64,000 bases of DNA from an uncultured Clostridia bacterium (lineage in GTDB: Bacteria > Bacillota > Clostridia > Christensenellales > UBA1242), in the NCBI GenBank assembly GCA_944362965.1, contig CALVTR010000001.1, positions 90,529-154,528 of the forward strand, in the 5' to 3' direction. The notes under the pieces were generated by a model that saw nothing but the letters and a program-made list of their open reading frames with translations, had not been told where the DNA came from and made no database searches. Positions 4,005 to 63,161 of the stretch are shown here, piece by piece. Each line of letters begins with the position of its first letter. Position 1 is the first letter of the stretch. Both the position numbers and the translations under genes were made by a program.

Positions 4005-4535
4005 TTACTCCATATCTTTTATTAGGCAATCCTTGCCGAAGTTTCTTATTGCAATATTTTTAAACTGCTTTAAAGGCATAGGGTTATTATTTGCTGAGCC
4101 AAGGCAGTTTTCAATAAATATTGGTTGCAAGCCCATGTCAAATAGCTGAAATCCTATTGCAAGAAGGCAGGCATCATAGTCTGTTCCACAAAGGTATACC
4201 TTCTCGCTACCCGCTTGCTTTAATCGCTGAGTAAAATCTAATGGCAAAGCGTAGGAATGTTTTTCTATTATCTCTAAATTTTCGGGCTCGTCAAACGCTA
4301 GGTCAATATCAGGGCTTTCTGTCATTTTGTGCCAATCTAAAAATCTTTGATATTGACCGCCATTCAAGTTGACAAATTTTGTTGCAAAAATTCTATCAAA
4401 ATGAGAGCGCTCAAGGAGTTTATTTATATTTTCAAGCATATTTTTATTGCTATTTGTAATAAACCCCTTCTGCACATCAACAATTATTAGAATTTTCTTT
4501 CCCCCGTCCATGTTATTTGTTGTCATCGTCAACAA
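4005..4535 (-). CDS. isochorismatase/cysteine-hydrolase family protein
   Basis: [13 protein letters not shown]-terminal motif and a later [10 protein letters not shown]. The start is uncertain: an ATG at 4511 lies 1 nt after the dnaK stop, while the longest ORF starts at 4535. Confidence 0.7.
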
Positions 4536-6354
4536 CTACTTCTGGGTCGCCGTCGTTGTTTCCGTTGTTGCCATTGCCGTTGCTGCCATCAGTTGTTCCG
4601 TTTGTTCCGTTTGGATTAGCTGATTGATACATCTTAGAAACAATGCCGTTTGAAACATTTGTAAGCTCGTCAATAGCTTTCTTTACAGTGTCAATGTCAT
4701 CGCTAGCCATATCGGTCTTAGCTTTTTCAATGGCATCTTGAAGCTTTTTCTTGTCATCTTCTTGAAGCTTATCACCATTTTCTTTTATCATCTTTTCAAG
4801 ACCATAGACGAGGTTGTCTGCTTGGTTCTTTGTTTCAACAAGTTCCTTACGCTTCTTATCTTCTTCAGCGTGAGCTTCAGCTTCTTTGATAGCGTTTTGA
4901 ATATCTTCTTCCTTAAGGTTTGAAGATGCTGTGATTGTGATATTTTGTTCCTTATTTGTTCCAAGATCCTTTGCAGAAACTTTAACTATACCGTTTGCAT
5001 CAATATCAAAGGTAACTTCGATTTGTGGAACGCCTCTTGGTGCTGGTGGAATATCTGTAAGTTGGAATCTTCCAAGAGTTTTGTTTTGATTTGCAAATTC
5101 TCTTTCACCTTGAAGAACGTGGATATCTACGGCTGGTTGGTTATCAACTGCAGTTGAGAATACTTGAGATTTTCTTGTAGGTATTGTTGTGTTTCTTTCA
5201 ATAAGTTTTGTAAACACGCCGCCAAGAGTTTCAATGCCAAGTGAAAGTGGAGTTACATCAAGAAGAAGAACATCTTTAACTTCTCCGCCAAGAACACCTG
5301 CTTGAATTGCAGCACCAATAGCAACGCATTCATCAGGGTTGATGCCCTTGTATGGATCTTTGCCGATAAATTCTTTAACAGCTTCTTGAACAGCAGGAAT
5401 ACGTGTTGAACCACCAACTAAGATAACTTTATCAATTTGATTCTTGTCAAGTTTAGCGTCAGCAAGAGCTCTTACTGTGCAGTCGATTGTTTCTTTAACA
5501 AGGTCTTCAGTAAGTTGGTCAAACTTAGCACGAGTAAGTTCATATTCCATATGTTTAGGACCTGTTGCGTCAGCAGAAATGAATGGAAGTGATATTGTTG
5601 TCTTTGGAGTTGCTGAAAGGTCTATCTTAGCCTTTTCTGCAGCTTCCTTGAGTCTTTGCATAGCAAGTTTATCAGTTGAAAGGTCTATATTGTTTGTCTT
5701 TTTGAACTCTTCAACAAGAAGGTCAATAATTCTATTATCAAAGTCATCGCCACCAAGACGAGTGTTGCCATTTGTTGAAAGAACTTCAAACACACCGTCA
5801 CCTATTTCAAGAATAGATACATCGAATGTTCCACCGCCCAGGTCGTAAACTAAAATCTTTTGATTTGCGTTTTCACCTTTGTCAAGACCATAAGCAAGAG
5901 CGGCTGCAGTAGGCTCGTTGATGATACGAAGAACATCAAGTCCTGCAATCTTACCAGCGTCTTTTGTTGCTTGACGTTGTGAGTCGTTAAAGTATGCAGG
6001 CACTGTGATAACAGCCTGAGTAACAGGTCCACCAAGATAGCTTTCTGCATCAGCCTTCAATTTTGAAAGTATCATAGCAGAGATTTCTTGTGGTGTGTAT
6101 TCTTTGCCGTTAAGAGTAACCTTATAGTTTGTTCCCATTTCACGTTTAATTGATTGAACTGTGTTTTCAGCATTTACTATCGCTTGACGCTTAGCAACTT
6201 TGCCGACAAGTCTTTCTCCTTCCTTTGTGTAAGCTACAACTGAAGGCGTTGTTCTATCTCCTTCAGCATTTGCTATAACGGTTGGTTTTCCACCTTCCAT
6301 AACAGCTACACATGAGTTTGTTGTTCCTAAGTCTATTCCAATAATTTTTCCCAT
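4513..6354 (-). CDS. dnaK: molecular chaperone DnaK (Hsp70)
   Basis: [17 protein letters not shown] and [11 protein letters not shown] motifs, full length at 613 aa. Confidence 0.98.
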
Positions 6355-8475: not shown

Positions 8476-10395
8476 TTATACAATCGCAGTCCAATCTCGT
8501 TTATAATAAGTAGAACTTCCTAAATACTCTAAAGCATTCACAGGAATTGACGAAGCTTGAACAGTTGTTGAAGCGTAACCATTGCCTGACACCCTCCAAT
8601 TACATGTTGTATTTAGTGTTATCGTTTCAAGCCCTGTTACACTTTGGAAAGCATAGTAGCCTATAAATGTAACGCTTTCTGGGATTACTAGAGAAGTTAC
8701 AGCAAATCCACAATAATAAAAGGCAAGTCTACCTATACCTGTCACATTTGAAGATAGTTCTATCGTGATATTATCAAGCCCTGCGAAAGCACCAATTTCA
8801 ATATACGTGATTATACTATAAAGATAGCTTCCTTCGGTTATTGTTGTATTATCTGTTGCACGTATTAAAGCCATATCTTCAAGTCTAATTAAGCAGTTCA
8901 GTTCATTACCATCACTATCTCGACTTGTAAAGTATTGATTTTCAGGGTCTACATATATAGTTTTGATATTTTGGCACCCTGAAAATGCATATTCACTAGT
9001 AATATCATTAACATTTTTCCCTATATGGATGTTGCTAATAGATATGTTATTATAGTATTTATCATGACTATCTTCTTCAAGATATGATCTAAATAAATTT
9101 GGTATAGTTTCAACACTATCACCAAAAATGAAATTTGTTATAGTAGAGCCACTAAAAGTAGCAATGGTTGTTCCATCATACAAATAATTAAGACTCGCAT
9201 TTTTTGCATTATAATAAATTGTGTTTACACTTAAATCACTAAAAGCCTTGTGACCTATCCTTTCTACATTTGCACCTATAGTCAATTCTTCAAGATTGTC
9301 GCAAGCACAGAAAGCATATCCATCTATATCTGTCACGCTATCTGGAATTGTTATATTTGTTAAACTACTGCAATAATAGAAAGCATAATTACCTATACTT
9401 GTCACACTGTCTGGAATTACTATACTTGTTAAACTATCGCAACCAGAGAAAGCACGATCTCCTATACTTGTCACACTAAAAGTATAAGGTGATACTTCTG
9501 AGTTATAGGTTTCTGTTGGTATTTTTAATCCAATCACACTTGTATCACAGCCTGTAACACTTGCTGTGCCATCTGTGCCATCTTCGTTATAAGAATATGT
9601 TAAATAATTATCTGGCTCTTCAAATATTGCATAATAGGTTGCGGCAGAAGTATCGTCATATGTAAATTCATAATCAAAACTTGTTGATACAAGCTCTCCT
9701 GTTTCACTACCTGCTCTCCAACCTAAGAAAGCTGCTCCGTCAACGTCTGTAAAGTTGGCTGAAAGTGCAACTTGCTGCCCTATTTCTACTACTCCACCAC
9801 CTGTTGCTGTGCCTAGTGTTTCATTAGTCGATATCGCTGTCACTGATAGTGCTTCTTTTATTGTGATAACTATTTCTCCTAAATCTATGCTGTCAGAGTT
9901 TGGTGCCATGATTGTCAGCTCAAGTGTGCCGTCTGCTTGCGTAGTTGCAGGGTCAAATTCTTTAAAATCGTCACCATCTGAATCGGTTAAGTCATTCACA
10001 CCAATAATTCCGCTATGCCTTTCTGACACGCCGTCATTTGTAAGGGAGCTCAAGTCTACGTCCGCTATTTGCCAATAACTATCCGTTGCATTGATTATAT
10101 CAAAATACAAGGTAAAAGAGCCGTGACCATTCTCTTCTGTGTTTAAAGACGTTAAATCCATATTAAAGTTTCCGTTTATGTAACCCGGTGTAAAACTATC
10201 AACAACTATCTCTTCTCCGCCCGCTTCTTGATACCTGACTTCTTTAACATACAAGCTCTTGTCTGGAACTACAAAACTTAAACTTCCTTGCATGCTTATC
10301 TGTTGCTGCGTCGCTGCATATACCCCAAGTATCAATACACCAAGCATAAGCATAAATAACGAAATACATGATATTAGTTTTAATTTTAATGACAT
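8476..10395 (-). CDS. secreted/surface BspA-type leucine-rich-repeat protein (locus 1)
   Basis: The likely start is the MSLKLKL Met at 10395, preceded by AAGGAGAG; the 26 codons upstream run through the leader and are rejected. N-terminal K-rich and hydrophobic signal. The C-terminal half has ~23-aa repeats (SLTSIVIPDSVTSIGNYAFYYC). Confidence 0.85.
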   Translation of the reverse strand: MSLKLKLISCISLFMLMLGVLILGVYAATQQQISMQGSLSFVVPDKSLYVKEVRYQEAGGEEIVVDSFTPGYINGNFNMDLTSLNTEENGHGSFTLYFDIINATDSYWQIADVDLSSLTNDGVSERHSGIIGVNDLTDSDGDDFKEFDPATTQADGTLELTIMAPNSDSIDLGEIVITIKEALSVTAISTNETLGTATGGGVVEIGQQVALSANFTDVDGAAFLGWRAGSETGELVSTSFDYEFTYDDTSAATYYAIFEEPDNYLTYSYNEDGTDGTASVTGCDTSVIGLKIPTETYNSEVSPYTFSVTSIGDRAFSGCDSLTSIVIPDSVTSIGNYAFYYCSSLTNITIPDSVTDIDGYAFCACDNLEELTIGANVERIGHKAFSDLSVNTIYYNAKNASLNYLYDGTTIATFSGSTITNFIFGDSVETIPNLFRSYLEEDSHDKYYNNISISNIHIGKNVNDITSEYAFSGCQNIKTIYVDPENQYFTSRDSDGNELNCLIRLEDMALIRATDNTTITEGSYLYSIITYIEIGAFAGLDNITIELSSNVTGIGRLAFYYCGFAVTSLVIPESVTFIGYYAFQSVTGLETITLNTTCNWRVSGNGYASTTVQASSIPVNALEYLGSSTYYKRDWTAIV

Positions 10396-10435: not shown

Positions 10436-10539
10436 GAGAAGGCATAAAGGCTGATAAGCCTTTCAGAAGGCAAAAGCTTTTGCCTTGTTGTGCATTTTGG
10501 AAAAATGCACGTGCCTTCTCACACTCGCGGCGAAGCCGC
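10436..10539 (-). promoter_or_regulatory. structured 5' leader of locus 1 (four-way junction plus GC hairpin)
   Basis: Outer stem GAGAAGGCA/TGCCTTCTC (10436-10444 / 10512-10520) encloses three hairpins at 10446-10463, 10467-10486 and 10490-10510. A GCGGC-GAA-GCCGC hairpin follows at 10527-10539. Confidence 0.55.
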
Positions 10540-10581
10540 TCGCTCGCGATAGCCGCTTGACGCGTCTATCTTTATGCTATT

Positions 10582-10609
10582 AGTATACCCCCCCCGCAAC
10601 CCACGTCAA
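10582..10609 (-). promoter_or_regulatory. promoter P1 with a G8 tract in the spacer
   Basis: Minus strand reads TTGACG (10604-10609), TGGGTTGC, G8 (10588-10595), then TATACT (10582-10587), giving a 16-nt spacer. An A/T-rich UP-like region lies upstream. Confidence 0.65.
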
Positions 10610-10707: not shown

Positions 10708-10826
10708 AGAGAGCGGTGATAAAGTTTATTTTTGAAACAACCTAATCTGACAATCGTCAAACATTTGGTTTGCGGACAGTGATGCAAACTAAGTTTGCCG
10801 GATAGTCGTCGAACATTTGGTTCGGT
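10708..10826 (-). repeat. copy of the hairpin-repeat family, inverted relative to the 21.4-21.8 kb array
   Basis: 10774-10821 matches the reverse complement of 21494-21541 at about 45/48 nt. Contains two AAAC/GAAC-CAAAT-GTTT/GTTC-GACG hairpin units. Confidence 0.7.
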
Positions 10827-19841: not shown

Positions 19842-19979
19842 ATAAGAGTATATGCCAAGACAAAAAAGAATGATAAAAATAAATAATTTTTAAAACAATC
19901 ACCATTCACTAACAAAAAATCCCATGTCTAAACATGAGATTTTGTTAGCTTTTATTTTGTAGTTTTAATAATCATATTT

Positions 19980-21196
19980 TTATTCAACAATAGCCCGCCA
20001 ATATCTATTGTAATAAGTATCTGTTAAATAAGTCAATGCATTTGTTTGAACTTCTGAAGCCGTTGACGTTGCTATAATTGATGAATCTGAGAAAGAACTG
20101 CTACTTGCTATTTCCCAGTTATATGGCGTATTGAATGTTATTGCTGTGAGTCTACCGCAACCATAGAAAGCTTCCCTACCTATACTTGTCACACTGTCTG
20201 GGATTGTTATACTTGTTAAACTACTGCAACCTCGGAAAGCACCTTCAAGTATACTTGTCACTCCTTCTGGGATTGTTATACTTGTTAAACTAGAGCAATT
20301 TTGGAAAGTAAAACTACCTATACTTGTCACTCCTTCTGGAATTACTATACTTGTTAAACTAGAGCAATTTTGGAAAGTAAAACTACCTATACTTGTCACT
20401 CCTTCTGGAATTACTATACTTGTTAAACTATCGCAACCAGAGAAAGCACGATCACACTAAATTCGTAAGGTGAACGAGAAGTTCTATATATTGTTGACGG
20501 GGTTACTAATTCTCCTGTTGCACTTGTATTACAATCTGATACTCTTGCTGTGCCTGGTGAAGTTGTATAACTATATTTTAAATTACTATTTGCTGTTTCA
20601 AATATTGCATAATAGGTTGTTGGTGAATTCTCTGTGAAGGTGAAATTATAGTCTGTAAGAGTTGATACAAGCTCTAGTATAGGAGATCGTGCTTTCTCTG
20701 GTTGCGATAGTTTAACAAGTATAGTAATTCCAGAAGGAGTGACAAGTATAGGGTCAAATTCTTTAAAGCCGTCTTCATCTGCGTCGGTTAGGTCATTCAC
20801 GCCAATTATCCCGCCATGTCTTTCTGACACACCATCATTTGCAAGAGCTCCTAAATCTACACTTTCTATTGACCACAGAATATCCGTTGCATTGATTATA
20901 TCAAAATACAAGATAAAAGAACCGTGACCATTCTCTTCTGTCTCTAAAGACGTTAAGTCCATATTAAAGTTTCCATTTATGTAACCCGGTGTGAAGCTAT
21001 CAACAACAATCTCTTCACCACCCGCTTCTTGATACCTGACTTCTTTAACAAACAAGCTTCTATCAGGCACGACAAAGCTTAAATTGCCTTGTATGCTTAT
21101 ATGCTGTTGCGTCGCTGCATATACCCCAAGTATCAACGCCCCTAGCATAAGCATAAATAATGAAATTGTGGATATCAATTTTACTTTTAATGACAT
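19980..21196 (-). pseudogene. rearranged BspA-type LRR surface protein paralog (locus 2)
   Basis: The N-terminal 150 aa are near-identical to locus 1. After KEFDP, about 85 codons are replaced by an antisense LRR unit. A 13-nt deletion at the FSV/DRAFSG junction causes a frameshift and stop at 20423. The LRR C-terminus continues in ORF 19980-20399. Confidence 0.8.
20386..20752. repeat. perfect 68-bp inverted repeat flanking a 231-bp segment
   Basis: 20386-20453 is the exact reverse complement of 20685-20752, checked base by base. Both arms encode one LRR unit (DRAFSGCDSLTSIVIPEGVTSIG). Confidence 0.9.
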
Positions 21197-21354: not shown

Positions 21355-21780
21355 GAATTTTCGAACCATATGTTCGACGATTGTTCGATTAAGAGTGTCT
21401 AAGTTTTAAACTACATCTCCGCTCTCTAAGCCTAACGCTTGGCGGTTATACGGCAGAGTGAGAATAAGAGATAAGCTATGTCTCCGCTCTTAAGCCAAAT
21501 GTTTGACGGCTGTCCGGCAAACTTAGTTTGCATCACTGTCCGATAAAGTGAATATAAGAAACAAACTTTATCTCCGCTCTCTAAGCCTAACGCTTGGCGA
21601 CTATCCGGCAGAGTAAGTTGAAAAAATAAACTTTGTCGCCGCTCTCAAACCTTACGTTTGACGATCGTCCGCGAGCCAGATGCTCGGCGTTTGTCCGGCA
21701 GAGTGACATAAAAGAATAGTCTTTATTCCCGCTCTCTTTAACCATATGTTCGACGGCTGTCTATGTGAGCGAGCTTTGTC
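21355..21780 (+). repeat. tandem array with alternating 65/90-bp units
   Basis: Unit heads T(C/T)(T/G/C)CCGCTCT at 21416, 21481, 21571, 21636 and 21726, giving spacings of 65, 90, 65 and 90. Each unit carries a 4-5 bp hairpin with a 5-nt loop followed by G(G/A)CG. Confidence 0.8.
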
Positions 21781-21928: not shown

Positions 21929-21956
21929 AGTATACCCCCCCCGCAACCCTTGTCAA
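21929..21956 (-). promoter_or_regulatory. promoter P2 with a G8 tract in the spacer
   Basis: Minus strand reads TTGACA (21951-21956), AGGGTTGC, G8 (21935-21942), then TATACT (21929-21934), giving a 16-nt spacer. Confidence 0.6.
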
Positions 21957-22112: not shown

Positions 22113-22230
22113 TTTCTCCGCCGCAGGCAAGCGAATGAGGGATTTTTATTAAAAAATCACAATAGGCAAAATATGTTTTGCCTATAAAAACTCTAGTGAG
22201 TTTTTCATTCGCTTGCCTGCGGCGGAGAAA
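22113..22230. other. nested palindrome D: 26-bp outer stem plus three hairpins
   Basis: TTTCTCCGCCGCAGGCAAGCGAATGA (22113-22138) pairs perfectly with 22205-22230. Inner hairpins lie at 22141-22158, 22162-22185 and 22187-22204. Confidence 0.7.
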
Positions 22231-39880: not shown

Positions 39881-40861
39881 CTAAGCCACTTCACCTATAT
39901 CTATAGTGACATTTTTTGTTATTTTACAAGTCAATATACTTTCATCGTCTGCTGTCGATGTTTCTATCTCATCATTTTCAACAGCGTGAGCAGTGATGTC
40001 GTAATCTACTTCGTCTGATGGCGTGACAATAGCCGTTGCATTTGTTGATGAAGCCGTGCTTGGGGATGAAGAAGCTTGCACATATGAAAGATATCCAATA
40101 ATCGCAGTGCCATTTGCATAAACAGTATATGAGTGAACATATCTACGTGGCTCTACGGAACTAGAATTTTCTTCCTGAGTTGAAACTTCATCTTGGAAAG
40201 GATTAGAAGCAAGTGTGAGATATAAATTAGAGCTTACATAAACTTCTGCACTGCCTTTTTCTTCAATAGTATAATACATTGAACTTCCTAAATCAGTTTT
40301 GAAACAAATCTCAATATCGCTCCTATAATTATTTATAGTAACCTTATACATAGTCGTTTCTGACAATTCTATGAAAATATTATTTAAGCTTATTGTTGTT
40401 GAGCTTGTTGCTTGAATATTAATATATATTGTGCCAGAAACCCCATCATATGTTGCTACTTCAGAAATTGGAACACCATCACCAGCTATTGTTCCGCTGA
40501 CGGTTAATGTTGCATTTGATATGTTAGATTGACTGCTTGCACTGTATGCTGTTGTGGTTGTATTGACAACATCTATTGCAACAGTTACTTTCCCACTATC
40601 TGTTAAAACTGTGCCGATATCAAGATCAAAGCTGTCTTGAACAAAGCCTGGAAAGAAATTTCCCATAGTCTGACCATCTGTCATGTCGGTGGATATCCTT
40701 ATGTCTTTTACATACAACGTTGAACCTTCTATATTAAATTGCACATTTCCTTTTAAATTTATGGTTATGTTACCAGTTACAGCCAAAACTCCCACCAAAA
40801 GCATACTAAATACTAACACAAAAGCTGAAATCATAGATACTAATTTTACTTTTAAACTCAT
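39881..40861 (-). CDS. secreted surface protein paralog without LRRs (locus 3)
   Basis: The N-terminal MSLKVKLVSMISAFVLVFSMLLVGVLAVTG and the following beta-rich domain (LYVKDIRIS...FFPGFV) are homologous to loci 1 and 2. The C-terminal part is Ser/Thr-rich. Confidence 0.8.
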   Translation of the reverse strand: MSLKVKLVSMISAFVLVFSMLLVGVLAVTGNITINLKGNVQFNIEGSTLYVKDIRISTDMTDGQTMGNFFPGFVQDSFDLDIGTVLTDSGKVTVAIDVVNTTTTAYSASSQSNISNATLTVSGTIAGDGVPISEVATYDGVSGTIYINIQATSSTTISLNNIFIELSETTMYKVTINNYRSDIEICFKTDLGSSMYYTIEEKGSAEVYVSSNLYLTLASNPFQDEVSTQEENSSSVEPRRYVHSYTVYANGTAIIGYLSYVQASSSPSTASSTNATAIVTPSDEVDYDITAHAVENDEIETSTADDESILTCKITKNVTIDIGEVA

Positions 40862-41032: not shown

Positions 41033-41076
41033 AGCCTATCCATTAAGAATAGAATATTATATCTTAATTCTCTTCT

Positions 41077-41103
41077 ATTATACCCCCCCGCAACCCACGT
41101 CAA
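41077..41103 (-). promoter_or_regulatory. promoter P3 with a G7 tract in the spacer
   Basis: Minus strand reads TTGACG (41098-41103), TGGGTTGC, G7 (41083-41089), then TATAAT (41077-41082), giving a 15-nt spacer. The upstream ~35 nt are identical to P1. Confidence 0.65.
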
Positions 41104-41378: not shown

Positions 41379-43388
41379 TTAATTATCATTAAGAACAATG
41401 GCATTTCTTCTATCAATGTCGTAGAAGATTTTATCAACCTCAAGTTTTTTAGAAATTCCCATAGGTTCAGGAGCTGATGACTTAACCATACATTTAGTTG
41501 CATAGAACGGTGTCATGGTGTCCATCATGATTTCCTTTCTGAATATCTTTGCAACAACCGTCCATTGTTTAAGCTGTCTTAATTGTTGTTTATCAAGCAG
41601 CGGTCTGCGTGTTCGCTGAACAGAAGTCGAGATATTTTCTCCAGAATCTGATTCTTTTGTATTACGCGACCTATTCTCTTCTTCGTGGAATACCGTTGTT
41701 TCACCGCAGGCTTCTGAGAAGGCTTGAATAGTTGACGGGTCTTCTGAGCCTAAGAACACTTCCATCTGGAAGTTACCACGAATGTTTTGAGCTTCATCAG
41801 CACCATACTTAATATCAAGTTGTTTATATGATTGAAGAACTATTTCAAAGAACACGTTTCTTGAACGAGCAACTGTAACCATAGTTCCAAACTTAGGAAC
41901 AGGTGGCATATTACCAAACTCATCAAGAATGAAATATACAGGACGTTTAAGTTTTCCTGTCTTGCCATTCTTAGGATTTACTGTTCTGTTTGCGACATCG
42001 ACAAGCACCTTATAGAGCTGACTTATACAAAGCACGCCTAGTGGGTGACGTTCAGTTTTGTGGTCTGGAATACGAATGAAGAATGCTGTTGGACGTTCTG
42101 GGATATCTTCAAAATCAATATCCGTTCCGCTTGTCATATAGAAGATACCTTCGTCGCCGAGCATATTACCAATAGAAGAGCCAAGTGTTGAAATAAATGA
42201 CCTTTGTGTAACAGGGCTGGCAAGACAAACTGTTGACATAAGGTCATGCACGGTGCTAAGTCTTGGGTCTCTGCCTTCGCTATATTTTGTCAAAGTTTTA
42301 AGAGCATTTTCTCTATCACCCGCAGGATCACGGCGCATACAAATCTTATATAGATTATAGAAATTAAATTTGTCAAGAGTCATGCCCAGTCTCGGGTCGC
42401 GGCTATCTTCAAGCATACCTTCCATAATACCAAGAATAAAGTCACGACAACCATCAGGCCACATCTTATCTTTGGCATTAGGATCATCTGGAATAAGAGA
42501 AAGCGAAATGTTTTTTAAGTTAGATTTTGCTTCATCTTCAAGTTGAACACGTCTTGCTTCAAGTTCCTGTTGAAGGATGTCGTTATTTGGGAAAGCTTTT
42601 CCTTCAAAACCAAACCAAGTGTCGCCATAGGTTGCTCCACCAATTTGATCTGGCGAAAATCTTTTATAGCCCATCTCTTCAGGGGTTGCATTGCTTATCT
42701 TCTTTACTTCTTTTGCAAGATTTCCTGCTCTTTCATAAGTTTTATAAGCAATTTCCATAGGATTCCAACGTGATGACGCATAAGGATTTTCAAGGTTTAG
42801 AACGATAATATTATAGCCTTCTTCTCTTAAAGCGTTTGCATTATCGGCGTAAAGTTCGCCCTTAGGGTCAGTCATAACAAGGCTAGGCTTTTGCCCAGTG
42901 TGAGCAAGTATTCTAATTGTTGGATTTGCGAAAATCTGTGTCTTACCAGTACCAGTAGTACCTAAAACCAATGCGTGAGTTTCAGGTTTCATATTGACTT
43001 CATAATGCCCGCCAACTTCCTTATTTCTAAAAACAAAGCCTGTTTTCTTAAGCGATGGAAGATTGTTCCATGTTGAAAAGATAAGGTCTGGGTCAGTGCG
43101 TAATCTTTCAGTTGTGATAAATTTAGAGTCAAAGTTGATATCAGTCTTTTCGCCTTCAGCCGTAGTTCCAACATTAGAGCCCATACCTTTTTTCTCTTTT
43201 GATAAGAGCGCTGTGCATAGTCCTGCAATAACGCCTATCGCAAGCATAGCAAGTGATATAACATTGACAAGTGCATCCGTTATCTCTCTTGTGCCTTCTT
43301 GGGTAAAATAAGAAATTGCAACACCAATTCCATAACCAAGAATGCCAAATACCAACATTAAAATGACACTAAGCTTGAATTTCTTCAT
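41379..43388 (-). CDS. VirD4/TraG-type type IV coupling protein (membrane-anchored P-loop ATPase)
   Basis: Two N-terminal TM helices, Walker A LGTTGTGKTQ, the DPKGEL motif and Walker B YFILDEFGNM. Confidence 0.85.
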   Translation of the reverse strand: MKKFKLSVILMLVFGILGYGIGVAISYFTQEGTREITDALVNVISLAMLAIGVIAGLCTALLSKEKKGMGSNVGTTAEGEKTDINFDSKFITTERLRTDPDLIFSTWNNLPSLKKTGFVFRNKEVGGHYEVNMKPETHALVLGTTGTGKTQIFANPTIRILAHTGQKPSLVMTDPKGELYADNANALREEGYNIIVLNLENPYASSRWNPMEIAYKTYERAGNLAKEVKKISNATPEEMGYKRFSPDQIGGATYGDTWFGFEGKAFPNNDILQQELEARRVQLEDEAKSNLKNISLSLIPDDPNAKDKMWPDGCRDFILGIMEGMLEDSRDPRLGMTLDKFNFYNLYKICMRRDPAGDRENALKTLTKYSEGRDPRLSTVHDLMSTVCLASPVTQRSFISTLGSSIGNMLGDEGIFYMTSGTDIDFEDIPERPTAFFIRIPDHKTERHPLGVLCISQLYKVLVDVANRTVNPKNGKTGKLKRPVYFILDEFGNMPPVPKFGTMVTVARSRNVFFEIVLQSYKQLDIKYGADEAQNIRGNFQMEVFLGSEDPSTIQAFSEACGETTVFHEEENRSRNTKESDSGENISTSVQRTRRPLLDKQQLRQLKQWTVVAKIFRKEIMMDTMTPFYATKCMVKSSAPEPMGISKKLEVDKIFYDIDRRNAIVLNDN

Positions 43389-46505: not shown

Positions 46506-46581
46506 GGAAGTTTAGCTCAGCTGGGAGAGCATCTGCCTTACAAGCAGAGGGTCATAGGTTCGAGCCCTATAACTTCCACCA
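46506..46581 (+). tRNA. tRNA-Val (anticodon UAC) with encoded CCA
   Basis: Acceptor stem GGAAGTT/AACTTCC, D-loop AGCTCAGCTGGGAGAGC, anticodon loop CTTACAA, T-arm GGTTCGAGCCC and a 3' ACCA. Confidence 0.95.
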
Positions 46582-46693: not shown

Positions 46694-47419
46694 TTACTCT
46701 TTCCCTTTGTTTTTCTTATCTTTAATTTTCTTTTCTAATTTGTCAGCAAGTATATAGATAATGTATAGGTCAATTAAGCAAACTGATATAAAAACAAACC
46801 AATCAATGATTGTTAGCGCTGACCAATCTATTAGGTCGCTGCCAAGAAAACAGGTCATAGCCACGCAGACAGTTCGGCAAAATACAACTATCAGTAGGAA
46901 CTCCCACCAACGCATCTTAGTTATGCCAGCAACCATGCAAAGTGCGTCATCTGGAAAGAATGGAAATAAGAACATAAGCGGCAAGTATATCTTAGATTTT
47001 ACTGCTACTAAGTCTTGAGCTTTCTTTAGACTTTCTTCCCCTACCATTCTAATAGCTATTTTTTCTCCGCCGAATCTACCGATTAAAAACATAGCCATAC
47101 TTGATAGAACAACGCCAACAGAAGATATGACAAAGCCCTGCCATGCTCCAAATAGGATGATTGAAACAATAATAAAGGTCATGCTTGTTGCTGGGACTAA
47201 GCATAGCAACGTTGTCACTAGAACCTGTAATAATATAAACACTACCCATCCCCAAGCGCCACAGTCTGCTATTAGCGTTCGAAGACCATCAACTGATGTT
47301 ATACCAAGACTATCAAGAGTAATCCATGCTATGCCAGAGATAAAAACAATGCATGCAATTAGAATAACCCATTTAACCCACGTTTTCAGTTTCATTAGTG
47401 TCCTCGTCTTCAATAACAA
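46694..47419 (-). CDS. TVP38/TMEM64 (DedA-related) family membrane protein
   Basis: Polytopic protein with a pattern like the SNARE-associated/TVP38 family (LLQVLVTTLLCLVPATSM...GRFGGEKI). Overlaps the upstream gene; an alternative start lies at 47395. Confidence 0.65.
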   Translation of the reverse strand: MLLKTRTLMKLKTWVKWVILIACIVFISGIAWITLDSLGITSVDGLRTLIADCGAWGWVVFILLQVLVTTLLCLVPATSMTFIIVSIILFGAWQGFVISSVGVVLSSMAMFLIGRFGGEKIAIRMVGEESLKKAQDLVAVKSKIYLPLMFLFPFFPDDALCMVAGITKMRWWEFLLIVVFCRTVCVAMTCFLGSDLIDWSALTIIDWFVFISVCLIDLYIIYILADKLEKKIKDKKNKGKE

Positions 47420-48401
47420 TCTTTGATATTCCTAAGTCCTTAAGCATTTTAGTGTAAATCGATTTTCGGCTCTCAAGAGCTTTGTAGTATTTGCCAAGTA
47501 TGATTTTATTTGACAAACCTATTCCTTTAATCATAAACACAATTAAAGTCACAAGATTGATAAGCAGGCTTAAAACAGTGTTCCAACCTAAAGAATTAAA
47601 CGTTGGAAAGATTAAGCAGCTAACAAACCCTGCTGAAATTAAGCCTGTAGCGACATACTTCATTACACTTGCAGTAAGTTCTCTTTTTTCGTCAAAGAAG
47701 GCAGATGCAGGCTTAGTTCTTGTTTCTTCCACGTCTGATAATAAATTCCCCCAATAGATAGGCTTATAGTGCAGCTTTATTGTGCGAAACTTATACTCGT
47801 CAGTATTTAGCTCTTCACTCAGCTTTGAGATTTCATTAGCGTCACCTTTGTTTACAATTAGACTAATGCGTTTTCTGTCCTTCTTGACGTAATCTAATTG
47901 TTTTAAGAGTTCTTGCTTTTTCTGGGTTGTTTTATCAAACTCTAATTTCTTCTTGTCGTAATTTTTGTCACTTTTTTGCGGATCAACGCAGTGCAGCTTT
48001 TCATATAAAGATTTTATTTTATCTTCATAAATATCAAGTTTAATTTGATAGTTATAGACTTCCTTAAGCCAATTTTCCGCATCTGCAACCTTGTCCAGTG
48101 CATAGATAGTTTTTCTTTGCCCGTCAATCTCGTCTTGTATATCAGTAATCTTCTTTTTCTTTAAATCTCTACCTTTCTGTATGAGATACATGCCAAACAA
48201 AACTGAAAGTTCTGATGCAAGCAATATCGAAAAGCTTGCCCAATATGAGGCAGTAAGTATCTTGCTAAAATCAAAGCCTACCGTAATAAACGACATAAAA
48301 CCGTTAGCAATAAGAACTAAGATTATTATGAGCGTTCCAGAAATGCCACGAAGTAAATCCTTTTTGTTAATACTACTTATCTTGTCTTTCAGATTGTTCA
48401 T
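47373..48401 (-). CDS. membrane protein with a long central coiled coil
   Basis: Two N-terminal and about three C-terminal hydrophobic helices around a K/E-rich heptad region. Confidence 0.55.
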   Translation of the reverse strand: MNNLKDKISSINKKDLLRGISGTLIIILVLIANGFMSFITVGFDFSKILTASYWASFSILLASELSVLFGMYLIQKGRDLKKKKITDIQDEIDGQRKTIYALDKVADAENWLKEVYNYQIKLDIYEDKIKSLYEKLHCVDPQKSDKNYDKKKLEFDKTTQKKQELLKQLDYVKKDRKRISLIVNKGDANEISKLSEELNTDEYKFRTIKLHYKPIYWGNLLSDVEETRTKPASAFFDEKRELTASVMKYVATGLISAGFVSCLIFPTFNSLGWNTVLSLLINLVTLIVFMIKGIGLSNKIILGKYYKALESRKSIYTKMLKDLGISKIVIEDEDTNETENVG

Positions 48402-48897
48402 TTACCTTAACCCCACTTTTAGTCTTAATCCACTGAGCGACTCCATTAAAACCTAAGCCAACGCACATTGAGATTGACACAACCATGAGAGTGCCACGAA
48501 GTGATACAACTTGTTTTTCAATCATAGCAACAATAAACCATGCAAGCACAAATGGAGCTACAAAGCATGCATTTCTAAACATCTCTTGTTTTGCTTCCCA
48601 TTTTTTCTTTTGTGTAACAAGTTCGGATTTTTGATTATTGTCCACGCACTCAATACATTGATTAGTTATATCGTTTATCTTCTTTTTTAGGTGTCGCCCA
48701 TAAAAGAACACGGCTATAACCACCATAAGAGCGACAACAAATATCGCACTGCAACTGACCTTGTCCCACACGCTTGTTTGCTCGCTTATGAGAGTATCAA
48801 TTAAAAATGCATAGAGTGCATAGCCACCTGGAACGATATAACAAAAAACTCTGTATAACCATGTAAACAGAGTTAGTTTCCAATTCTTTTCTTTCAT
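48373..48897 (-). CDS. four-TM membrane protein
   Basis: 174-aa ORF with four hydrophobic segments, overlapping both neighbouring genes. Confidence 0.55.
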   Translation of the reverse strand: MKEKNWKLTLFTWLYRVFCYIVPGGYALYAFLIDTLISEQTSVWDKVSCSAIFVVALMVVIAVFFYGRHLKKKINDITNQCIECVDNNQKSELVTQKKKWEAKQEMFRNACFVAPFVLAWFIVAMIEKQVVSLRGTLMVVSISMCVGLGFNGVAQWIKTKSGVKVNEQSERQDK

Positions 48898-48900
48898 TTT

Positions 48901-49515
48901 TTACTCCACTATAACTCGTCTTGCTTTCTTGACTTTTTTAGACTTTGTGGCTGGCTGTGTTTGTGTTTCTAACTCTTTTTGCTCTTCTGTTGTCACCTGT
49001 TCGGGCTCTTGCGTTTCTTCGCTTACAGGCTCAATTTCAGGCTCATTTTTGCCTTCTTCTAGTGTATTTTGAGCTTCTTCAATTTTTGAGTTTAAGTCGT
49101 CAAGCAATTCTTGTGCACTCTCGCCTTCTGTTATAAGTTTATCGTAGAGCGCAACCTTTATCTTTTGAGCTTTCTTTAAAAGTTTTTGTATGTAAATTTT
49201 TAATTCTTCTTTCGTTTTTTCGGTTTGTTCATTTAGCAGCGTTTGCAATGACAACTGAAATTCGCTTATTGCTGATGTAACTTGAGCTCTTAGTGTTTCA
49301 AACGAAATTTGCAGCGGTGTTCCATTCTTTTTGTTGATTCTGCCCTGAACACATACAAGTATGAGTTTAGCAATAAAAGTAAGTATTGCAATTATACCAC
49401 TTGTTCCGCCAAGCACGCCTAAAAGCTTGTCCCAATTTTGTGTTATAAAATCGCTAGCTTCTGTAACCCACTGTGCCTGTAATAGTAAACCTATCATAGT
49501 CCCTCCTCCTTCCAT
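48901..49515 (-). CDS. membrane-anchored coiled-coil/acidic protein
   Basis: One TM helix near the N-terminus, then a coiled coil and an E/Q/T-rich tail ending in a basic KKVKKARR. Confidence 0.55.
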   Translation of the reverse strand: MEGGGTMIGLLLQAQWVTEASDFITQNWDKLLGVLGGTSGIIAILTFIAKLILVCVQGRINKKNGTPLQISFETLRAQVTSAISEFQLSLQTLLNEQTEKTKEELKIYIQKLLKKAQKIKVALYDKLITEGESAQELLDDLNSKIEEAQNTLEEGKNEPEIEPVSEETQEPEQVTTEEQKELETQTQPATKSKKVKKARRVIVE

Positions 49516-49928
49516 AACTTAATAAAAAAGTCCAACTTGGTGCTGAGCTCTTCTACTTTACTTTTAAGTTCTTTTATTGTGTCCCCCTGTTCTTCAATGA
49601 TTGATTTTAAAGCGTCAACTTCGGGTATTGCTTTAATCTCGTTATCTGTGTCTTGAATAATAAGTCTGTCGCATGGTATACGTTTAACGAGCGTGCCTTG
49701 ATAGTATATTTCAACATTTGTTTCAAGCACTCCATCAATGAACACTTCACTTGGCAAGGCAAAAGTATAATTTGCTTTGATTTTCGCACTTTTGTTACCA
49801 TTTTTAAAGCACAGATACACGTCATATTTATTGTCAATGTTGCGAACAAGAGTTATTATTTCATTGCAGACTATCGTTTTCTGTGACCAAAATCCCCTAT
49901 TATTTTCTATTCTTAGTTCCATATTCAC
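49494..49928 (-). CDS. phage hypothetical protein
   Basis: 144-aa ORF translationally coupled to its neighbours, with a C-terminal coiled coil. Confidence 0.5.
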   Translation of the reverse strand: MNMELRIENNRGFWSQKTIVCNEIITLVRNIDNKYDVYLCFKNGNKSAKIKANYTFALPSEVFIDGVLETNVEIYYQGTLVKRIPCDRLIIQDTDNEIKAIPEVDALKSIIEEQGDTIKELKSKVEELSTKLDFFIKLWKEEGL

Positions 49929-50257
49929 TCCTTAACTGCTCTAGGTTCTTTACCTAAAAGCTCTCTTAATTCATTATGGAGCTCAACAAATTCGGCTTTT
50001 CGCTCTTCGATATCTGGCACGACTTCGCCTGCCATATCTTGAATAATATCTTGGTCAAGCTGAGTTAAACGTTCTTGAATTTCATATTTTCTTTTATTGC
50101 CCAATTCTTTTTGAGTTGGCTCAATTTTTTGAATTTGAAATCTTCTGCCTTGCTCGTCTGGCTCGAGTTCAACAATCGTAAGTCCGTTTTGATTACAATA
50201 ATTCGCTCTTGCTGAATATTCGCCGTCTAAATAAAAAATATCTCCTACATTATACAT
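49925..50257 (-). CDS. phage hypothetical protein
   Basis: The start is taken at MYNVGD after AAGGAG, directly downstream of the fibre gene stop. Confidence 0.5.
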   Translation of the reverse strand: MYNVGDIFYLDGEYSARANYCNQNGLTIVELEPDEQGRRFQIQKIEPTQKELGNKRKYEIQERLTQLDQDIIQDMAGEVVPDIEERKAEFVELHNELRELLGKEPRAVKE

Positions 50258-50268
50258 AATTTCTCCTT

Positions 50269-51255
50269 TTATTTGCCTATAGCAACCCAATAAACATCAA
50301 CAGTAGAACTTGCTGTTATTTTAAAACCTGTTAAATTTGGATTACTAATTGACAAATCATAATTCGAAGCCTTACTGAAAGAAACTGGGGACACAATTAT
50401 AGACGAAACACTTTCAGTATAAGGTGTTTCATAGTTCGCAGTATAATTAAGAGCCCCAATAACAATCCCCCAGTTAACAATAGTTTCTCCTATTTTTACT
50501 GAATTAGTTCCTTGTTGAATTAAATTTATGATTTTATTGTTTAAGTTATTGAACTGCGTTTGTGGGTCACTGTCAAAGTTTAAATTTTGTTGTAATTCTC
50601 CACCAACATTGACTGCGGTTTTAGTTTCAACAGCAGAATCTACTTCCGTCTGCGTCACATAACCTGCTCCATTCGTAAGCTGATTATTATTTGTTGGAAG
50701 CTGTGACGTAGTGGCATACCCTGCACCATTTGAAAGTTGTGAGTTATCTGTAGGTATGGTTGGCTTGCCTGTTAAGTCTTCATAAGAACCACTTGTTGCA
50801 ACTGAAGCAAGAGATGATACATCTGCTTTTAAATCTGCATCCCATGTAGTTTGTGGTTGTCCACCTACAATAACAGTCGTTCCACCTTCAGTTAGAGTTT
50901 GCGGTGTTAGGTTTCCGTCGTCACCAACAAGCATTACTTTGCCTGCATTTGCGATACCTTGATTTTTGTCTAGTTTGTCAGTTTCAAGATTGGTTATATC
51001 AGTCGTATTTGATTGAACGCCACTTTGCAATGTTGATACATTATCTTCCAGAGTTGACACATCAGTCTTGAGCTGTGCAATATCACTTGTGTTTTGTGCA
51101 ACCTGCTCTGTCATATTGTCCTCGACAACATAAGTTGTGTCCTTAGGTGAATATGTGTAAACTATGCTATTAACCGTTATAGTCCCGTTTTCTTTTAACT
51201 CGTCAAACTGCTCTTTTGTTAGTTTAACGACACCTTTATATAGATTGTTGCTCAT
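50269..51255 (-). CDS. phage tail fibre protein
   Basis: Coiled-coil N-terminal part plus two N-x-QL-x-NGAGY-x-T repeats typical of phage tail-fibre repeats. Confidence 0.7.
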   Translation of the reverse strand: MSNNLYKGVVKLTKEQFDELKENGTITVNSIVYTYSPKDTTYVVEDNMTEQVAQNTSDIAQLKTDVSTLEDNVSTLQSGVQSNTTDITNLETDKLDKNQGIANAGKVMLVGDDGNLTPQTLTEGGTTVIVGGQPQTTWDADLKADVSSLASVATSGSYEDLTGKPTIPTDNSQLSNGAGYATTSQLPTNNNQLTNGAGYVTQTEVDSAVETKTAVNVGGELQQNLNFDSDPQTQFNNLNNKIINLIQQGTNSVKIGETIVNWGIVIGALNYTANYETPYTESVSSIIVSPVSFSKASNYDLSISNPNLTGFKITASSTVDVYWVAIGK

Positions 51256-51433
51256 CTTCGTTTATCTCCTTAGGTAATTCTTCATCACTCTCAATATAAG
51301 TGTATTTATTAGGAATATCTATTGCTTCAACATACTTCTTGCCCGTTTCGTTTTGAATAATATACTTATTAGCGTCACTGTATGTCTTTATAAGTTGTCT
51401 GTCGTTTACAATTATTGTTTCTTGTTTAATCAT
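51236..51433 (-). CDS. small phage protein
   Basis: 65-aa ORF overlapping both neighbouring genes. Confidence 0.45.
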   Translation of the reverse strand: MIKQETIIVNDRQLIKTYSDANKYIIQNETGKKYVEAIDIPNKYTYIESDEELPKEINEDEQQSI

Positions 51434-53262
51434 TCGCTCACCTCACTTGCTTTTACCCATTCTACATTTGTTAATGATACCCAGTTCGTTGCAGTTGTCC
51501 ACTCATCGTATAGTGCGTCTGGAATTATTATTTGACAGTTTGTAGCATGTCCTAAATAACTCACATTCGACAAGGTTGGAATAGTTGTGCAATATCTAAA
51601 ATCATACTTAGTAATTGCATTGCAGCTGCTATATTGTGATGAGTTTATATTTGGCGCCTGTCCTAGATAAGTTACAGACAACAAACTACTACAGCTTTGA
51701 AAGCATTGCCCTCCAACGTTTTCTACGCTTGATGGAATAGTTATGCTTGTTAAACCACTACAACTCATAAATACTGCATTATCTATATCTTTTAAAGAAT
51801 TAGGCAATATAACAGATTGCAATTCACGACATTGATGAAACGCACCATAACCTAACTGTAATAAGCCATCTGGAAGTGACACAGTTTTTAGATAATAACA
51901 ATTTTCAAACGCATCAGATAATATTATTTTACAATCTTTGTGAACTACGCATGAAGAAATGTGAGTATTTACGCAAGATTTTAATACAAGATATGAATTA
52001 TTCTTGCTAGAAAGATACCCTGCGTTGTCATAAACTTTTACATTTAAACTATAGCAATAATCAAAAGCACTAGAACCTATATCTTTTAAATTATCAGGAA
52101 GAGTTATATTTTTAAGGTTATGACAGCCATTAAATGCACTTATGTTTATTGTTGTTAAATTGTCGCAATCGGATAAATCAACTGTATTTAGACTATAGCA
52201 ATTTTGAAAGGCATAATTACCAATTTCTGTTATCGGCAACGATAGTTCTATATCTTTTATCTTTTTACAACCATTGCAAAGGTCACTTTCTATTTCTGTT
52301 ATATTTGTTTTCTCTAAATTTAAAGAATTTAAGCTATTACATTGCGAAAAAGCATTTGTATCTAATTCTGATATGTTGTTAGATATGCTTATTGATTCTA
52401 AGTTACTACAATTACAAAACGCATCACTTTTTATTGAATTGACAGATTGTGGCAACACAATATTTTTTAAATTATAGCAACTATAAAAACTATACTGCCC
52501 AATTTCAGTAATAGAATTAGGAATAACACAAGCTTTAAGATTGTAACAATAATAAAACATTCTTTCAAGATTAGTATATGGTTGCGTTCTCTTTGGTATC
52601 GTTATTGTTTCTAACGAGACCGCATATTGACACATTCTTAATAATGATGTATGTTGTTCGAGTCCAAGCCTGATATTTTTGCAACAATATAGATTGTTAT
52701 AAGCAATATTTGTGAATAAACTATAAGCACCATTAGAAACACTAAAATAAAACTCAAATGAGCCTGTAGCACTGACTTCAATGGTATAATTACCTTTCTG
52801 CTGATAAGTATGGCTATAGATAGTTGAATTAGCTCCCGACCTAACAGCATAAGTATCTGTTGTTCCATCACCCCAAGACACACTTATTGAACAATTATTA
52901 TCTACCATACTTGTTACGTTTATATTGCGAAATTGAACATATAGTCCAGTGCTATCATTTAGTTCAATATCAAACTCATCATTTTCGCTTGTTGTGATGT
53001 ATGTCGCACCAATAGTTATGTCGCTATCTTCAACTATTATTTGTCCATCAACGATATCTACAGGGCTCGTCCACTCTTGAAATGTCAATCTATCATGTGC
53101 TGGTGGCTCTGTAGGCAGCGTAAACGTATCGCCCGTGTCAAGCCAATCTTCTTTTAAGATTGTTCCATCGTAGTCAATTACTTTAATCCAATACTTGCCA
53201 TTGTGCATTTTGTCAGTATTGACTACAACTCCAACTTCCTTTCCATCTATGTATACTGGCAT
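51430..53262 (-). CDS. phage tail/receptor-binding protein with a PKD-like domain and BspA-type LRRs
   Basis: VSWGDGTTD...HTYQQKGNYTIEV is a PKD-like signature. About 13 repeats of the L-x-x-I-x-(L/I)P-x-S(V/I)-x-x-I-x-x-x-AF-x-x-C type follow. Confidence 0.7.
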   Translation of the reverse strand: MPVYIDGKEVGVVVNTDKMHNGKYWIKVIDYDGTILKEDWLDTGDTFTLPTEPPAHDRLTFQEWTSPVDIVDGQIIVEDSDITIGATYITTSENDEFDIELNDSTGLYVQFRNINVTSMVDNNCSISVSWGDGTTDTYAVRSGANSTIYSHTYQQKGNYTIEVSATGSFEFYFSVSNGAYSLFTNIAYNNLYCCKNIRLGLEQHTSLLRMCQYAVSLETITIPKRTQPYTNLERMFYYCYNLKACVIPNSITEIGQYSFYSCYNLKNIVLPQSVNSIKSDAFCNCSNLESISISNNISELDTNAFSQCNSLNSLNLEKTNITEIESDLCNGCKKIKDIELSLPITEIGNYAFQNCYSLNTVDLSDCDNLTTINISAFNGCHNLKNITLPDNLKDIGSSAFDYCYSLNVKVYDNAGYLSSKNNSYLVLKSCVNTHISSCVVHKDCKIILSDAFENCYYLKTVSLPDGLLQLGYGAFHQCRELQSVILPNSLKDIDNAVFMSCSGLTSITIPSSVENVGGQCFQSCSSLLSVTYLGQAPNINSSQYSSCNAITKYDFRYCTTIPTLSNVSYLGHATNCQIIIPDALYDEWTTATNWVSLTNVEWVKASEVSE

Positions 53263-53263
53263 A

Positions 53264-54676: not shown

Positions 54677-54704
54677 ATTTTCTCCTTAAATTAAAAAAGC
54701 AAGA

Positions 54705-55190
54705 CTACTTGTCCTGCTTTGTTTCGTTATTTTTTAATCTCTGTTTTGCTTCATCATGTTTAAATACATTACTTGACAATCTTACAAGCAAATCATCTTC
54801 TTCTTTCGGAAATAGATATTCCGCTATTATTTTAGGAATTTTTATCAATGCTGTTATTATACTTGCAATTGCTGCTACTACGCTAGGAACGATTGTATAC
54901 CATTCACTAGCAAAGATAGGAACAATTATAGTAGTCGCTATTCCACCTAATATTACAACAACATACATAATCATTACTATCAAGAAAAATGGTTTTTTTA
55001 ACTTTCTTTTCTGCTCATGGTTTTTTATGCTTGATTCAGCTACATTTTTAAGGATTTCATTATGTAAATCGTTATCGGGATGTTCATTTGCTATCTCTTT
55101 AGATATAGATACATCTTTAACCTGCATTACATTATTAGAAATTAACTCTTGTAATTCTTTTATTTGGTCTTGTAAATTAGTAGGAGTCAT
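54705..55190 (-). CDS. two-TM membrane protein, translationally coupled to the ImmA-like gene
   Basis: ATGA overlap with 55187-55726. Central hydrophobic hairpin. Confidence 0.55.
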   Translation of the reverse strand: MTPTNLQDQIKELQELISNNVMQVKDVSISKEIANEHPDNDLHNEILKNVAESSIKNHEQKRKLKKPFFLIVMIMYVVVILGGIATTIIVPIFASEWYTIVPSVVAAIASIITALIKIPKIIAEYLFPKEEDDLLVRLSSNVFKHDEAKQRLKNNETKQDK

Positions 55191-55726: not shown

Positions 55727-55743
55727 GCTCCCTCCTTTTTATT

Positions 55744-55773
55744 ATTATAGTATTTTATCATAAAATTTGTCAA
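55744..55773 (-). promoter_or_regulatory. internal sigmaA-type promoter in front of the ImmA-like gene
   Basis: Minus strand reads TTGACA (55768-55773), an 18-nt spacer, then TATAAT (55744-55749), followed by an AAAGGAGGGAG RBS. Confidence 0.55.
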
Positions 55774-63146: not shown

Positions 63147-63161
63147 TTTTATTCTCCTTTA

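Follow-up and report, generated by a model that had tools for sequence, protein, structure and literature searches.

Does a long perfect inverted repeat inside a surface-protein gene mark a switch or a scar? The question is raised by locus 2, a rearranged LRR gene in the window, as we call the whole 64-kb stretch of DNA analysed here, and the initial annotation of this DNA left both readings standing, proposing either a recombination scar or an inversion cassette. Locus 2 lies in a division and cell-wall cluster with the order mraY, murD, ftsW, locus 2, murA, a divIB-like gene, DHH, ftsA, ftsZ, spoIIGA and sigma factors, and its host is an uncultured, spore-forming Clostridia lineage of gut type. 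Since the best MurA match among GTDB representatives is just 69% identical (to an uncultured Clostridia MAG; Christensenellales reach ~51%), the species is unrepresented among them. We conclude that the repeat in locus 2 is a recombination scar in a fast-shuffling gene family and that a programmed inversion cassette is unsupported. Locus 2 itself is probably a strain-specific, recent and frame-broken allele of the gene between ftsW and murA, a scar or pseudogene best explained by strand switching during repair or replication.

Build of the rearranged gene

The argument turns on the following features.

8476..10395, minus strand: locus 1, the intact paralog, which encodes 639 aa (ATG at 10395); outside locus 2, no sequence is closer to the arms than its first LRR unit (9392-9468)
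19980..21196, minus strand: locus 2, a rearranged, frame-broken allele of a BspA-type LRR surface protein, with ORFs 21196-20423 (257 aa) and 20399-19980 (139 aa, LRR_5)
20753..21196, minus strand: segment A, which runs from the start codon through a hydrophobic N-terminal helix into a predicted beta-sandwich, of which it contains the first part; ends ...KEFDP
20685..20752, minus strand: left arm, an antisense copy of the first LRR unit whose in-frame reading is ILVTPSGITILVKLSQPEKARS
20676..20684, minus strand: 9 further nt of the inverted copy, TCCTATACT (reverse complement: AGTATAGGA, unit-boundary bases that are absent at the right junction)
20454..20675, minus strand: middle domain (M), in normal orientation and in frame with segment A; 220/222 identical to the intact allele on contig L088
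20453/20454, minus strand: site of a 13-nt deletion relative to locus 1 and to the alleles on contigs L083 and L088, which puts the LRR array out of frame
20386..20453, minus strand: right arm, the LRR unit that opens the sense array, DRAFSGCDSLTSIVIPEGVTSIG; it agrees with the first unit of locus 1 at 66/69 positions
20277..20430, minus strand: exact 69-nt tandem duplication in the LRR array (85-nt exact match at a 69-nt offset)
19980..20177, minus strand: last LRR unit and C-terminal tail, 198/198 identical to both intact alleles
19916..19943, minus strand: terminator-like hairpin directly past the stop codon of locus 2

Locus 2 opens like locus 1, as had been noted: its N-terminal 444 nt (21196-20753) are ~85% identical to positions 10395-9949 of locus 1. 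Segment A is 85-88% identical to locus 1 and, in one comparison, 94-96% identical to the two intact alleles introduced below (96-97% for that on L083 in another). The claim that some 85 codons after KEFDP have given way to an antisense LRR unit also proved accurate. Gene positions 448-698 (251 nt, ~84 codons), which locus 1 and the intact alleles retain and which we term the B segment, are replaced by a 77-nt inverted copy, with the frame kept and a net loss of 174 nt.

The two arms (20386-20453 and 20685-20752) are 68 nt each, 100% complementary and 231 nt apart in a repeat search, so the sense array does begin with the exact reverse complement of the antisense unit, at the coordinates first proposed. 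A scan of the whole window returned this pair as its only long perfect inverted repeat. The inverted copy is longer than its arm: all 77 nt (20676-20752) align at 96% identity to positions 9392-9468, the first LRR unit of locus 1. The initial annotation was right that the middle domain keeps its normal orientation; its start at 20684 has to be moved, as the first 9 nt (20676-20684) belong to the inverted copy, and the repeat now encloses a middle domain of 222 nt. The other sense LRR units of locus 2 match the inverted unit at just 79-83%, and between the right arm and the first unit of the intact alleles identity is only ~85%. Each arm is mosaic, its 5' part resembling locus 1 and its 3' part locus 2. 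The first 3 nt of the left arm (CCT) are also the end of segment A, and are thus shared at the junction of the arm with the N-terminal part. With breakpoints marked by a slash, the assembled junctions of locus 2 read GACCCT/ATACTTGTCAC, GCACGATCTCCTATACT/AGAGCTTG and TTTAGTGTG/ATCGTGC.

The missing 13 nt are ACAAGTATAGGAG, or an equivalent register, and include the bases AGTATAGGA; they are lost exactly at the loop-proximal end of the sense arm. The frame is indeed closed by this junction deletion, as had been inferred at the outset: the ORF from 21196 ends at 20423, within the right arm, and the LRR array and C-terminus stand in a different frame as the ORF of 139 aa. Tandem LRR_5 repeats with a period of 69 nt are present in that ORF (Pfam, E = 4.9e-31) and in locus 1 (E = 1.6e-44); a third window gene, 51430-53262, is likewise LRR_5 (BspA-type) by Pfam. 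The two perfect 69-bp tandem units reported downstream exist only in a shifted register, in which 20430-20362 equals 20361-20293; in the LRR register, units 2 and 3 agree at 66/69 positions.

The 257-aa product consists of segment A, 26 aa encoded by the antisense unit plus the adjoining 9 nt, the middle domain and a 10-aa tail. Segment A, the antisense unit and the middle domain share one open frame; we roughly put the probability of this arising by accident at ~5%, a possible hint that an expressed product was selected. The export or anchor signal and the LRR array, combined in a single ORF in locus 1 and in the genes on L088 and L083, are not so combined in locus 2. For the first 312 aa of locus 1, AlphaFold (AF2) with a 23-sequence alignment predicts a membrane helix (residues 3-29) and a beta-sandwich (34-181), with pLDDT 70-85 over 34-181 and poor values beyond. 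The last two predicted strands of the sandwich (156-163 and 169-181), and also a linker, fall in the segment deleted from locus 2, so loss of the B segment would leave the N-terminal domain of the 257-aa product incomplete. The sandwich model had no significant fold match in the PDB by Foldseek, and neither it nor the middle domain matched a Pfam or NCBIfam family; NCBIfam returned just a far sub-threshold LRR match to the HupY/LrrG adhesin. We regard locus 2 as a pseudogene.

Intact alleles and the origin of the inverted copy

Comparison with other strains shows what the gene looked like before it was rearranged. A homology search with the 257-aa ORF, followed by cluster inspection, found the protein P0024, and a search with P0024 found P0026. 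The latter is the product of an intact 616-aa gene on L088 (ENA ERZ1090861, a 21-kb contig), which has no inverted unit and keeps the ftsW-gene-murA synteny of the window. The flanks are 99.1-99.5% identical, and L088 therefore represents the same species. Its junction is intact (GTGACAAGTATAGGTGATGG), with the 13 nt present. P0024 is the second intact allele (644 aa), on L083 (ENA ERZ1090881, a 2.1-kb contig); this contig matches the upstream region of locus 2, is ~93% identical in the middle domain and 92.5% in the C-terminal part over ~400 nt, and carries both the 84 codons and the 13 nt absent from the window. It, too, has no inverted unit. Since other strains hold an intact gene at the same position without the inverted unit, the structure of locus 2 is derived and strain-specific, which bears out the scar of the initial annotation. 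To judge from these alignments, the arrangement in the window is apparently a recently formed allele of an ancestral intact gene. Its LRR array is far shorter than those of the intact alleles, and the remaining units are mosaics of intact-allele units.

The perfect identity of the arms had been taken to imply either recent gene conversion or ongoing recombination. It fits a recent event. Ongoing conversion between the arms is unneeded, because the allele is younger than its 0.5-0.9% split from the L088 lineage and fewer than one difference would be expected in 68 nt; we therefore rejected continued homogenisation as unnecessary given the youth of the allele. The identity of the arms appears to reflect that youth and no maintenance mechanism.

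How might such an allele have arisen? The initial annotation proposed a search for a plus-strand LRR gene that could have donated the inverted unit; the window contains no plus-strand LRR donor besides the arm itself, and the donor is instead the first LRR unit of locus 2, which is itself locus 1-like. We propose that a break or a stalled fork occurred in the B segment, a hotspot of conversion between paralogs, and that the 3' end at ...GACCCT then primed on the wrong strand at ...AGTATAGG, using a 3-nt CCT/AGG microhomology. From there one LRR unit would have been copied backwards for 77 nt, and the copied end rejoined at the conserved start of the middle domain. At the switch points, microhomology amounts to 3 nt (CCT) at the junction of segment A with the arm, and none is evident at the junction of the arm with the middle domain. 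The resulting allele would have been in frame throughout, and was possibly tolerated until the loss of 13 nt cut off the LRR array. That loss lies where the stem and loop of the new hairpin meet, a place at which, speculatively, processing of the hairpin could be expected to act. A single event is insufficient: the loss of 13 nt, the shorter array and the duplicated 69-nt period come on top of it, and the order and number of events that led to locus 2 are not reconstructable from these alleles. Simple inversion with staggered breaks and double-inversion schemes were considered and are ruled out by the direct orientation of the middle domain together with the missing B segment.

Paralogs, promoters and sequence exchange

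The position of the breakpoints is best seen against the exchange of sequence within the family. In the sample ERZ1090861, nt 430-713 of locus 2 (L088) are 100% identical to the sample's own locus 1 (L105) with diverged flanks, a conversion tract of 284 nt, and the borders of this tract bracket the breakpoints of the window at 447/448 and 698/699. The B segment thus behaves as a recombination-prone module between the conserved blocks ...KEFDP and GELVST... A second case comes from L001, an assembled contig that carries the rearranged allele: the three SNPs that set it apart from the window are all bases of the third paralog (locus 3) of the same sample, in a tract bounded at 27-164 nt. With such tracts and the mosaic alleles in hand, the view of locus 2 as a rearranged paralog in a family shuffled by homologous recombination holds good: sequence clearly passes between the paralogs by homologous recombination and gene conversion. 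A scan of metagenome_contigs with a 17-mer from the arm gave 93 matches; among those listed (L089-L168), only L105, the locus 1 of sample ERZ1090861, matched loci 1 and 2 by BLAST. Our literature search on gene conversion in BspA genes found only unrelated papers on plant and animal LRRs.

The third paralog adjoins rpsF-ssb-rpsR in other contigs. It has an in-frame TAA after KEFAPATT in 10 protein variants from several samples, and past this TAA it is collinear and open in the same frame where a contig reaches that far (L084, L085).

Upstream of the coding regions, a promoter-like motif with a poly-G run between the -35 and -10 elements is common to all three window genes with the N-terminal domain.

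21929..21956, minus strand: TTGACA-16-TATACT, the best promoter-like site ahead of locus 2; its spacer contains a G8 run
Motif positions: 10609 (G8, locus 1), 21956 (G8, locus 2) and 41103 (G7, gene 39881-40861)
Spacer of the locus 2 promoter: 16 nt (window, L001), 15 nt (L088), 12 nt (L184, L185)

The variable poly-G spacers suggest slipped-strand phase variation, with the proviso that G runs are error-prone in assemblies. The leader of locus 2 is 730 nt long and contains 155-nt tandem repeats of variable copy number. Rfam found nothing in locus 2 or its leader, the matches at the E-value threshold being just generic hairpin matches to miRNA models. Given the conversion tracts with their cassette-like borders, the variable poly-G spacers and the conserved stop in the third paralog, the genes of this family are probably contingency loci.

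Scar, switch and known systems

Could the inverted unit be an artefact of metagenome assembly, in which the repetitive LRR region was traversed along a chimeric or wrongly joined path? The data are metagenomic, assemblies break at LRR repeats, and several contigs end in or near the locus (L002 at 20209; L184-L189). Against this, L001 (ENA ERZ28615321 scaffold_302, 86 kb) has the identical locus 2 structure, with 3 mismatches in 13,296 aligned bases and no gaps or Ns, so that two assemblies with a differing consensus (the 3 SNPs) agree on the structure; the window assembly and L001 possibly come from the same or related samples, and both may then rest on the same reads. The diagnostic 139-aa ORF occurs on only two contigs in a collection of 15 billion proteins. 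A 32-mer across the left junction had no match in GTDB genomes, and an exact look-up of the 257-aa product was empty, though the identical protein P0001 is in the homology collection. At none of the three novel junctions does the sequence shared with the intact arrangement exceed 3 nt, from which we infer that k-mers spanning them must derive from reads of real molecules. The insertion also preserves the reading frame. We consider an assembly artefact highly improbable. A different objection is that the allele is real and functional, its 257-aa product (anchor, partial N-terminal domain, 26-aa linker, middle domain and hydrophobic tail) being expressed and selected as a variant without LRRs. 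The single open frame through segment A, the antisense unit and the middle domain would favour this, as would a promoter-like site with the longest spacer (16 nt) among the alleles seen and the existence of other family members without LRRs, for example 39881-40861, P0007 and P0010-P0012. The loss of two predicted beta-strands speaks against it, as does the rarity of the allele. So does the transcript, which would hold a perfect 68-bp duplex in our folding computation (MFE -149 kcal/mol, z = -16); a perfect RNA duplex of this length is a likely target of RNase III. A functional new allele therefore seems to us unlikely, if less so than an artefact, and we retain the reading of locus 2 as a decayed allele left by strand switching.

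The remaining alternative is the one with which the locus was introduced, spelled out here as a programmed intragenic cassette whose 231-nt segment would be flipped by an invertase, or usefully by RecA, to toggle phase-variable adhesin products. A perfect 68-nt repeat inside a surface-protein gene invites this interpretation, the family bears other signs of contingency (variable poly-G promoter spacers, mosaic alleles), and intragenic invertons that give premature stops are documented (PMC10028968). We flipped the 231-nt spacer in silico. The predicted junctions of the flipped form are GCACGATCACACTAAATTCG and CAAGCTCTAGTATAGGAGATCG, or, with the breakpoints marked, GCACGATC/ACACTAAATTCG and CAAGCTCT/AGTATAGGAGATCG. 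Flipping sets AGTATAGGA beside GATCGTGC and so restores the normal unit start AGTATAGGAGATCG at the sense array, a point in favour of a cassette that has no coding consequence: the product becomes 172 aa, versus 257 aa as assembled, and the LRR array is unreached in both. Because the 13-nt deletion is independent of the orientation of the spacer, the array is out of frame either way, and the N-terminus is never joined to it. The same-species strains have a plain intact gene without the repeat, and the arms duplicate a coding unit, whereas the repeat of thiC has 11 positions (PMC10028968). Pfam found no integrase, resolvase or recombinase domain in ORFs of at least 150 aa across the 64-kb window, which leaves room for an enzyme encoded elsewhere, a single spacer orientation is present in the two assemblies that carry the allele, and the 172-aa product of the flipped form is absent from the protein collection. 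On these grounds the inversion cassette of the initial annotation is not supported, and we judge it very unlikely. Just as doubtful is a more elaborate version, an active switch in which inverted duplication turned an LRR unit into a long recombination site and the middle-domain segment (231 nt) flips within a clone, inside a multi-layer contingency system of poly-G promoter spacers, B-segment conversion and the third-paralog stop. With 68 bp of perfect homology, RecA could plausibly flip the spacer on rare occasions. Such flipping would be without functional effect; it would not restore the gene, and would be a by-product rather than a switch.

A scar left by strand switching, our preferred reading, has its nearest counterparts in template-switch (quasi-palindrome or four-point) mutations and fold-back inverted duplications that arise in replication or the repair of breaks (for the concept, see PMC7954356, PMC7202029 and PMC8604942). 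As in those events, a reverse-complement copy of nearby sequence from the same locus replaces the original in locus 2, a short microhomology (CCT) lies at the first switch, and a new perfect inverted repeat results. Locus 2 exceeds the scale of typical short-range events: the copy is 77 nt, its donor lies ~300-560 nt away and 251 nt were replaced. No quasi-palindrome existed beforehand, and further steps are required for the 13-nt deletion, the shorter array and the duplicated unit. Locus 2 is a clean natural case, with the intact ancestral allele in hand, of strand-switching repair in a repeat-rich gene giving rise to a long perfect inverted repeat.

A second comparison is with intragenic invertons. 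The thiC inverton has an 11-position repeat, and inversion has been attributed to site-specific recombinases (Chanin et al., PMC10028968). Locus 2 likewise has a pair of inverted repeats inside a surface-related coding region, and inversion would move the termination of the product. In contrast to invertons, its arms are a 68-nt duplicated coding unit and not short recombinase sites, no invertase lies nearby (64 kb), the repeat is absent from same-species strains and both states are truncated. We would caution that long inverted repeats within genes are not automatically invertons.

As members of the BspA-type LRR proteins (LRR_5, PF13306), the genes described here share the 23-residue (69-nt) period, the hydrophobic N-terminal anchor and the presence of several paralogs per genome, whereas the N-terminal beta-sandwich and middle domain are without a matching Pfam or NCBIfam family and locus 2 is frame-broken. 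Contingency and antigenic-variation families combine conversion from paralogs or silent copies with slipped-strand tracts, as in pilE/pilS and opa of Neisseria and vlp of Mycoplasma. The paralogs of the window resemble these in their conserved blocks flanking variable segments, in a perfect conversion tract of 284 nt, in promoter homopolymer tracts that vary between strains and in broken copies (locus 2, and locus 3 with its in-frame TAA). They differ in having no dedicated silent-cassette array, and the inverted unit of locus 2 belongs to no such described mechanism. Taken by itself, locus 2 matters little, as one more decayed copy in a recombining surface-protein family, and this family context is a more promising lead than the inverted repeat itself. 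In conclusion, locus 2 is a new example in which both the kind of event, probably strand switching within a locus, and the kind of gene family, a recombining set of surface-protein paralogs, are already known.

Exchange between the paralogs

In sample ERZ1090861, the same-species contig with an intact locus 2 (L088) and locus 1 of that sample (L105) are perfectly identical over 284 nt (locus 2 gene positions 430-713), between clearly diverged flanks. Here the B segment, the 251-nt stretch of intact alleles that an inverted LRR unit replaces in the window's locus 2, has undergone gene conversion in a cassette-like manner. The window and L001, another assembly with the rearranged locus 2, differ at three sites in total over 13.3 kb, all of them in the N-terminal region of locus 2 and confined to 27 nt (window 20913, 20921 and 20939; L001 4929, 4921 and 4903). 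At each site L001 has the base found in that sample's third paralog (L084). The cluster reflects either a short conversion tract or cross-talk between paralogs in the assembly consensus.

The third paralog, carried by contigs L084-L087, adjoins rpsF-ssb-rpsR (e.g. L084 3-1475). It has an in-frame TAA after KEFAPATT, at a site where the other paralogs have CAA, and its 152-aa product occurs in several samples as 10 distinct sequence variants (third-paralog proteins P0002, P0016, P0017, P0019-P0023 and P0025 of the homology collection). In L084 and L085, the contigs long enough, the part after the TAA keeps the order of the intact genes and stays open in an unchanged frame, as a 280-aa ORF with LRR_5. 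The third paralog may be a pseudogene that is old and tolerated; a more interesting possibility would be, for example, readthrough.

The N-terminal module and a possible mobile element

Features of the distal part of the window
39881-40861, minus strand: 326-aa gene without LRRs
41379-43388: type IV secretion coupling protein gene (TraG/VirD4-like)
46506-46581: tRNA-Val, near the ORF block at 47000-64000
51430-53262: further LRR_5 gene, within that ORF block

In its N-terminal region, the gene without LRRs shares about 32% identity with loci 1 and 2; members of this family pair the N-terminal module with differing C-terminal parts (compare P0007 and P0010-P0012). Downstream of the TraG/VirD4-like gene, most ORFs of the block at 47000-64000 are unannotatable; the block contains a capsid scaffolding domain (DUF4355) and an IrrE-like peptidase. 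This region, near tRNA-Val, may be what remains of a mobile element or prophage.

Promoter-like sites and leader sequences

Promoter-like sites, hairpins and repeats
10582-10609, minus strand: promoter-like motif of locus 1, G8 run within the spacer
21929-21956, minus strand: promoter-like motif of locus 2, G8 run within the spacer
about 41076-41103, minus strand: promoter-like motif of gene 39881-40861, G7 run within the spacer
21382-21760, minus strand: tandem repeats of the locus 2 leader
22113-22230: hairpin downstream of ftsW, 26-nt perfect arms and 66-nt loop
21773-21890: related imperfect hairpin, directly downstream of the locus 2 promoter-like site
10436-10560: related imperfect hairpin, directly downstream of the locus 1 promoter-like site
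20186-20420, plus strand: promoter-consensus matches antisense to LRR units (consensus match only)
20718-20745, minus strand: promoter-consensus match in the inverted arm (consensus match only)

The locus 2 leader, 730 nt from the promoter-like site to the ATG, holds tandem units of about 155 nt, of which L088 has one more copy. A 48-nt piece of the repeat recurs inverted, at 94% identity, upstream of locus 1 (10773-10820). Rfam searches returned no matching family for the leader repeats and only generic hairpin (miRNA-model) noise for the three hairpins.

On its antisense strand, every LRR unit fits the promoter consensus TTGTCA-16-TATACT, as a consensus match only. Because of the inverted arm, one of these motifs lies in sense orientation within locus 2, upstream of the middle domain and LRR array.

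All three N-terminal-domain genes of the window share the motif TTGAC(A/G)-spacer-TATA(C/A)T. The locus 2 copy has a 16-nt spacer in both the window and L001, a 15-nt spacer in L088 (GCGCGGGGG, about 4071-4140) and a 12-nt spacer in L184 and L185, two other contigs with this promoter region (GGGTTGGGGGG, about 6086-6150). With their poly-G spacers, these motifs look like slipped-strand phase-variable promoters.
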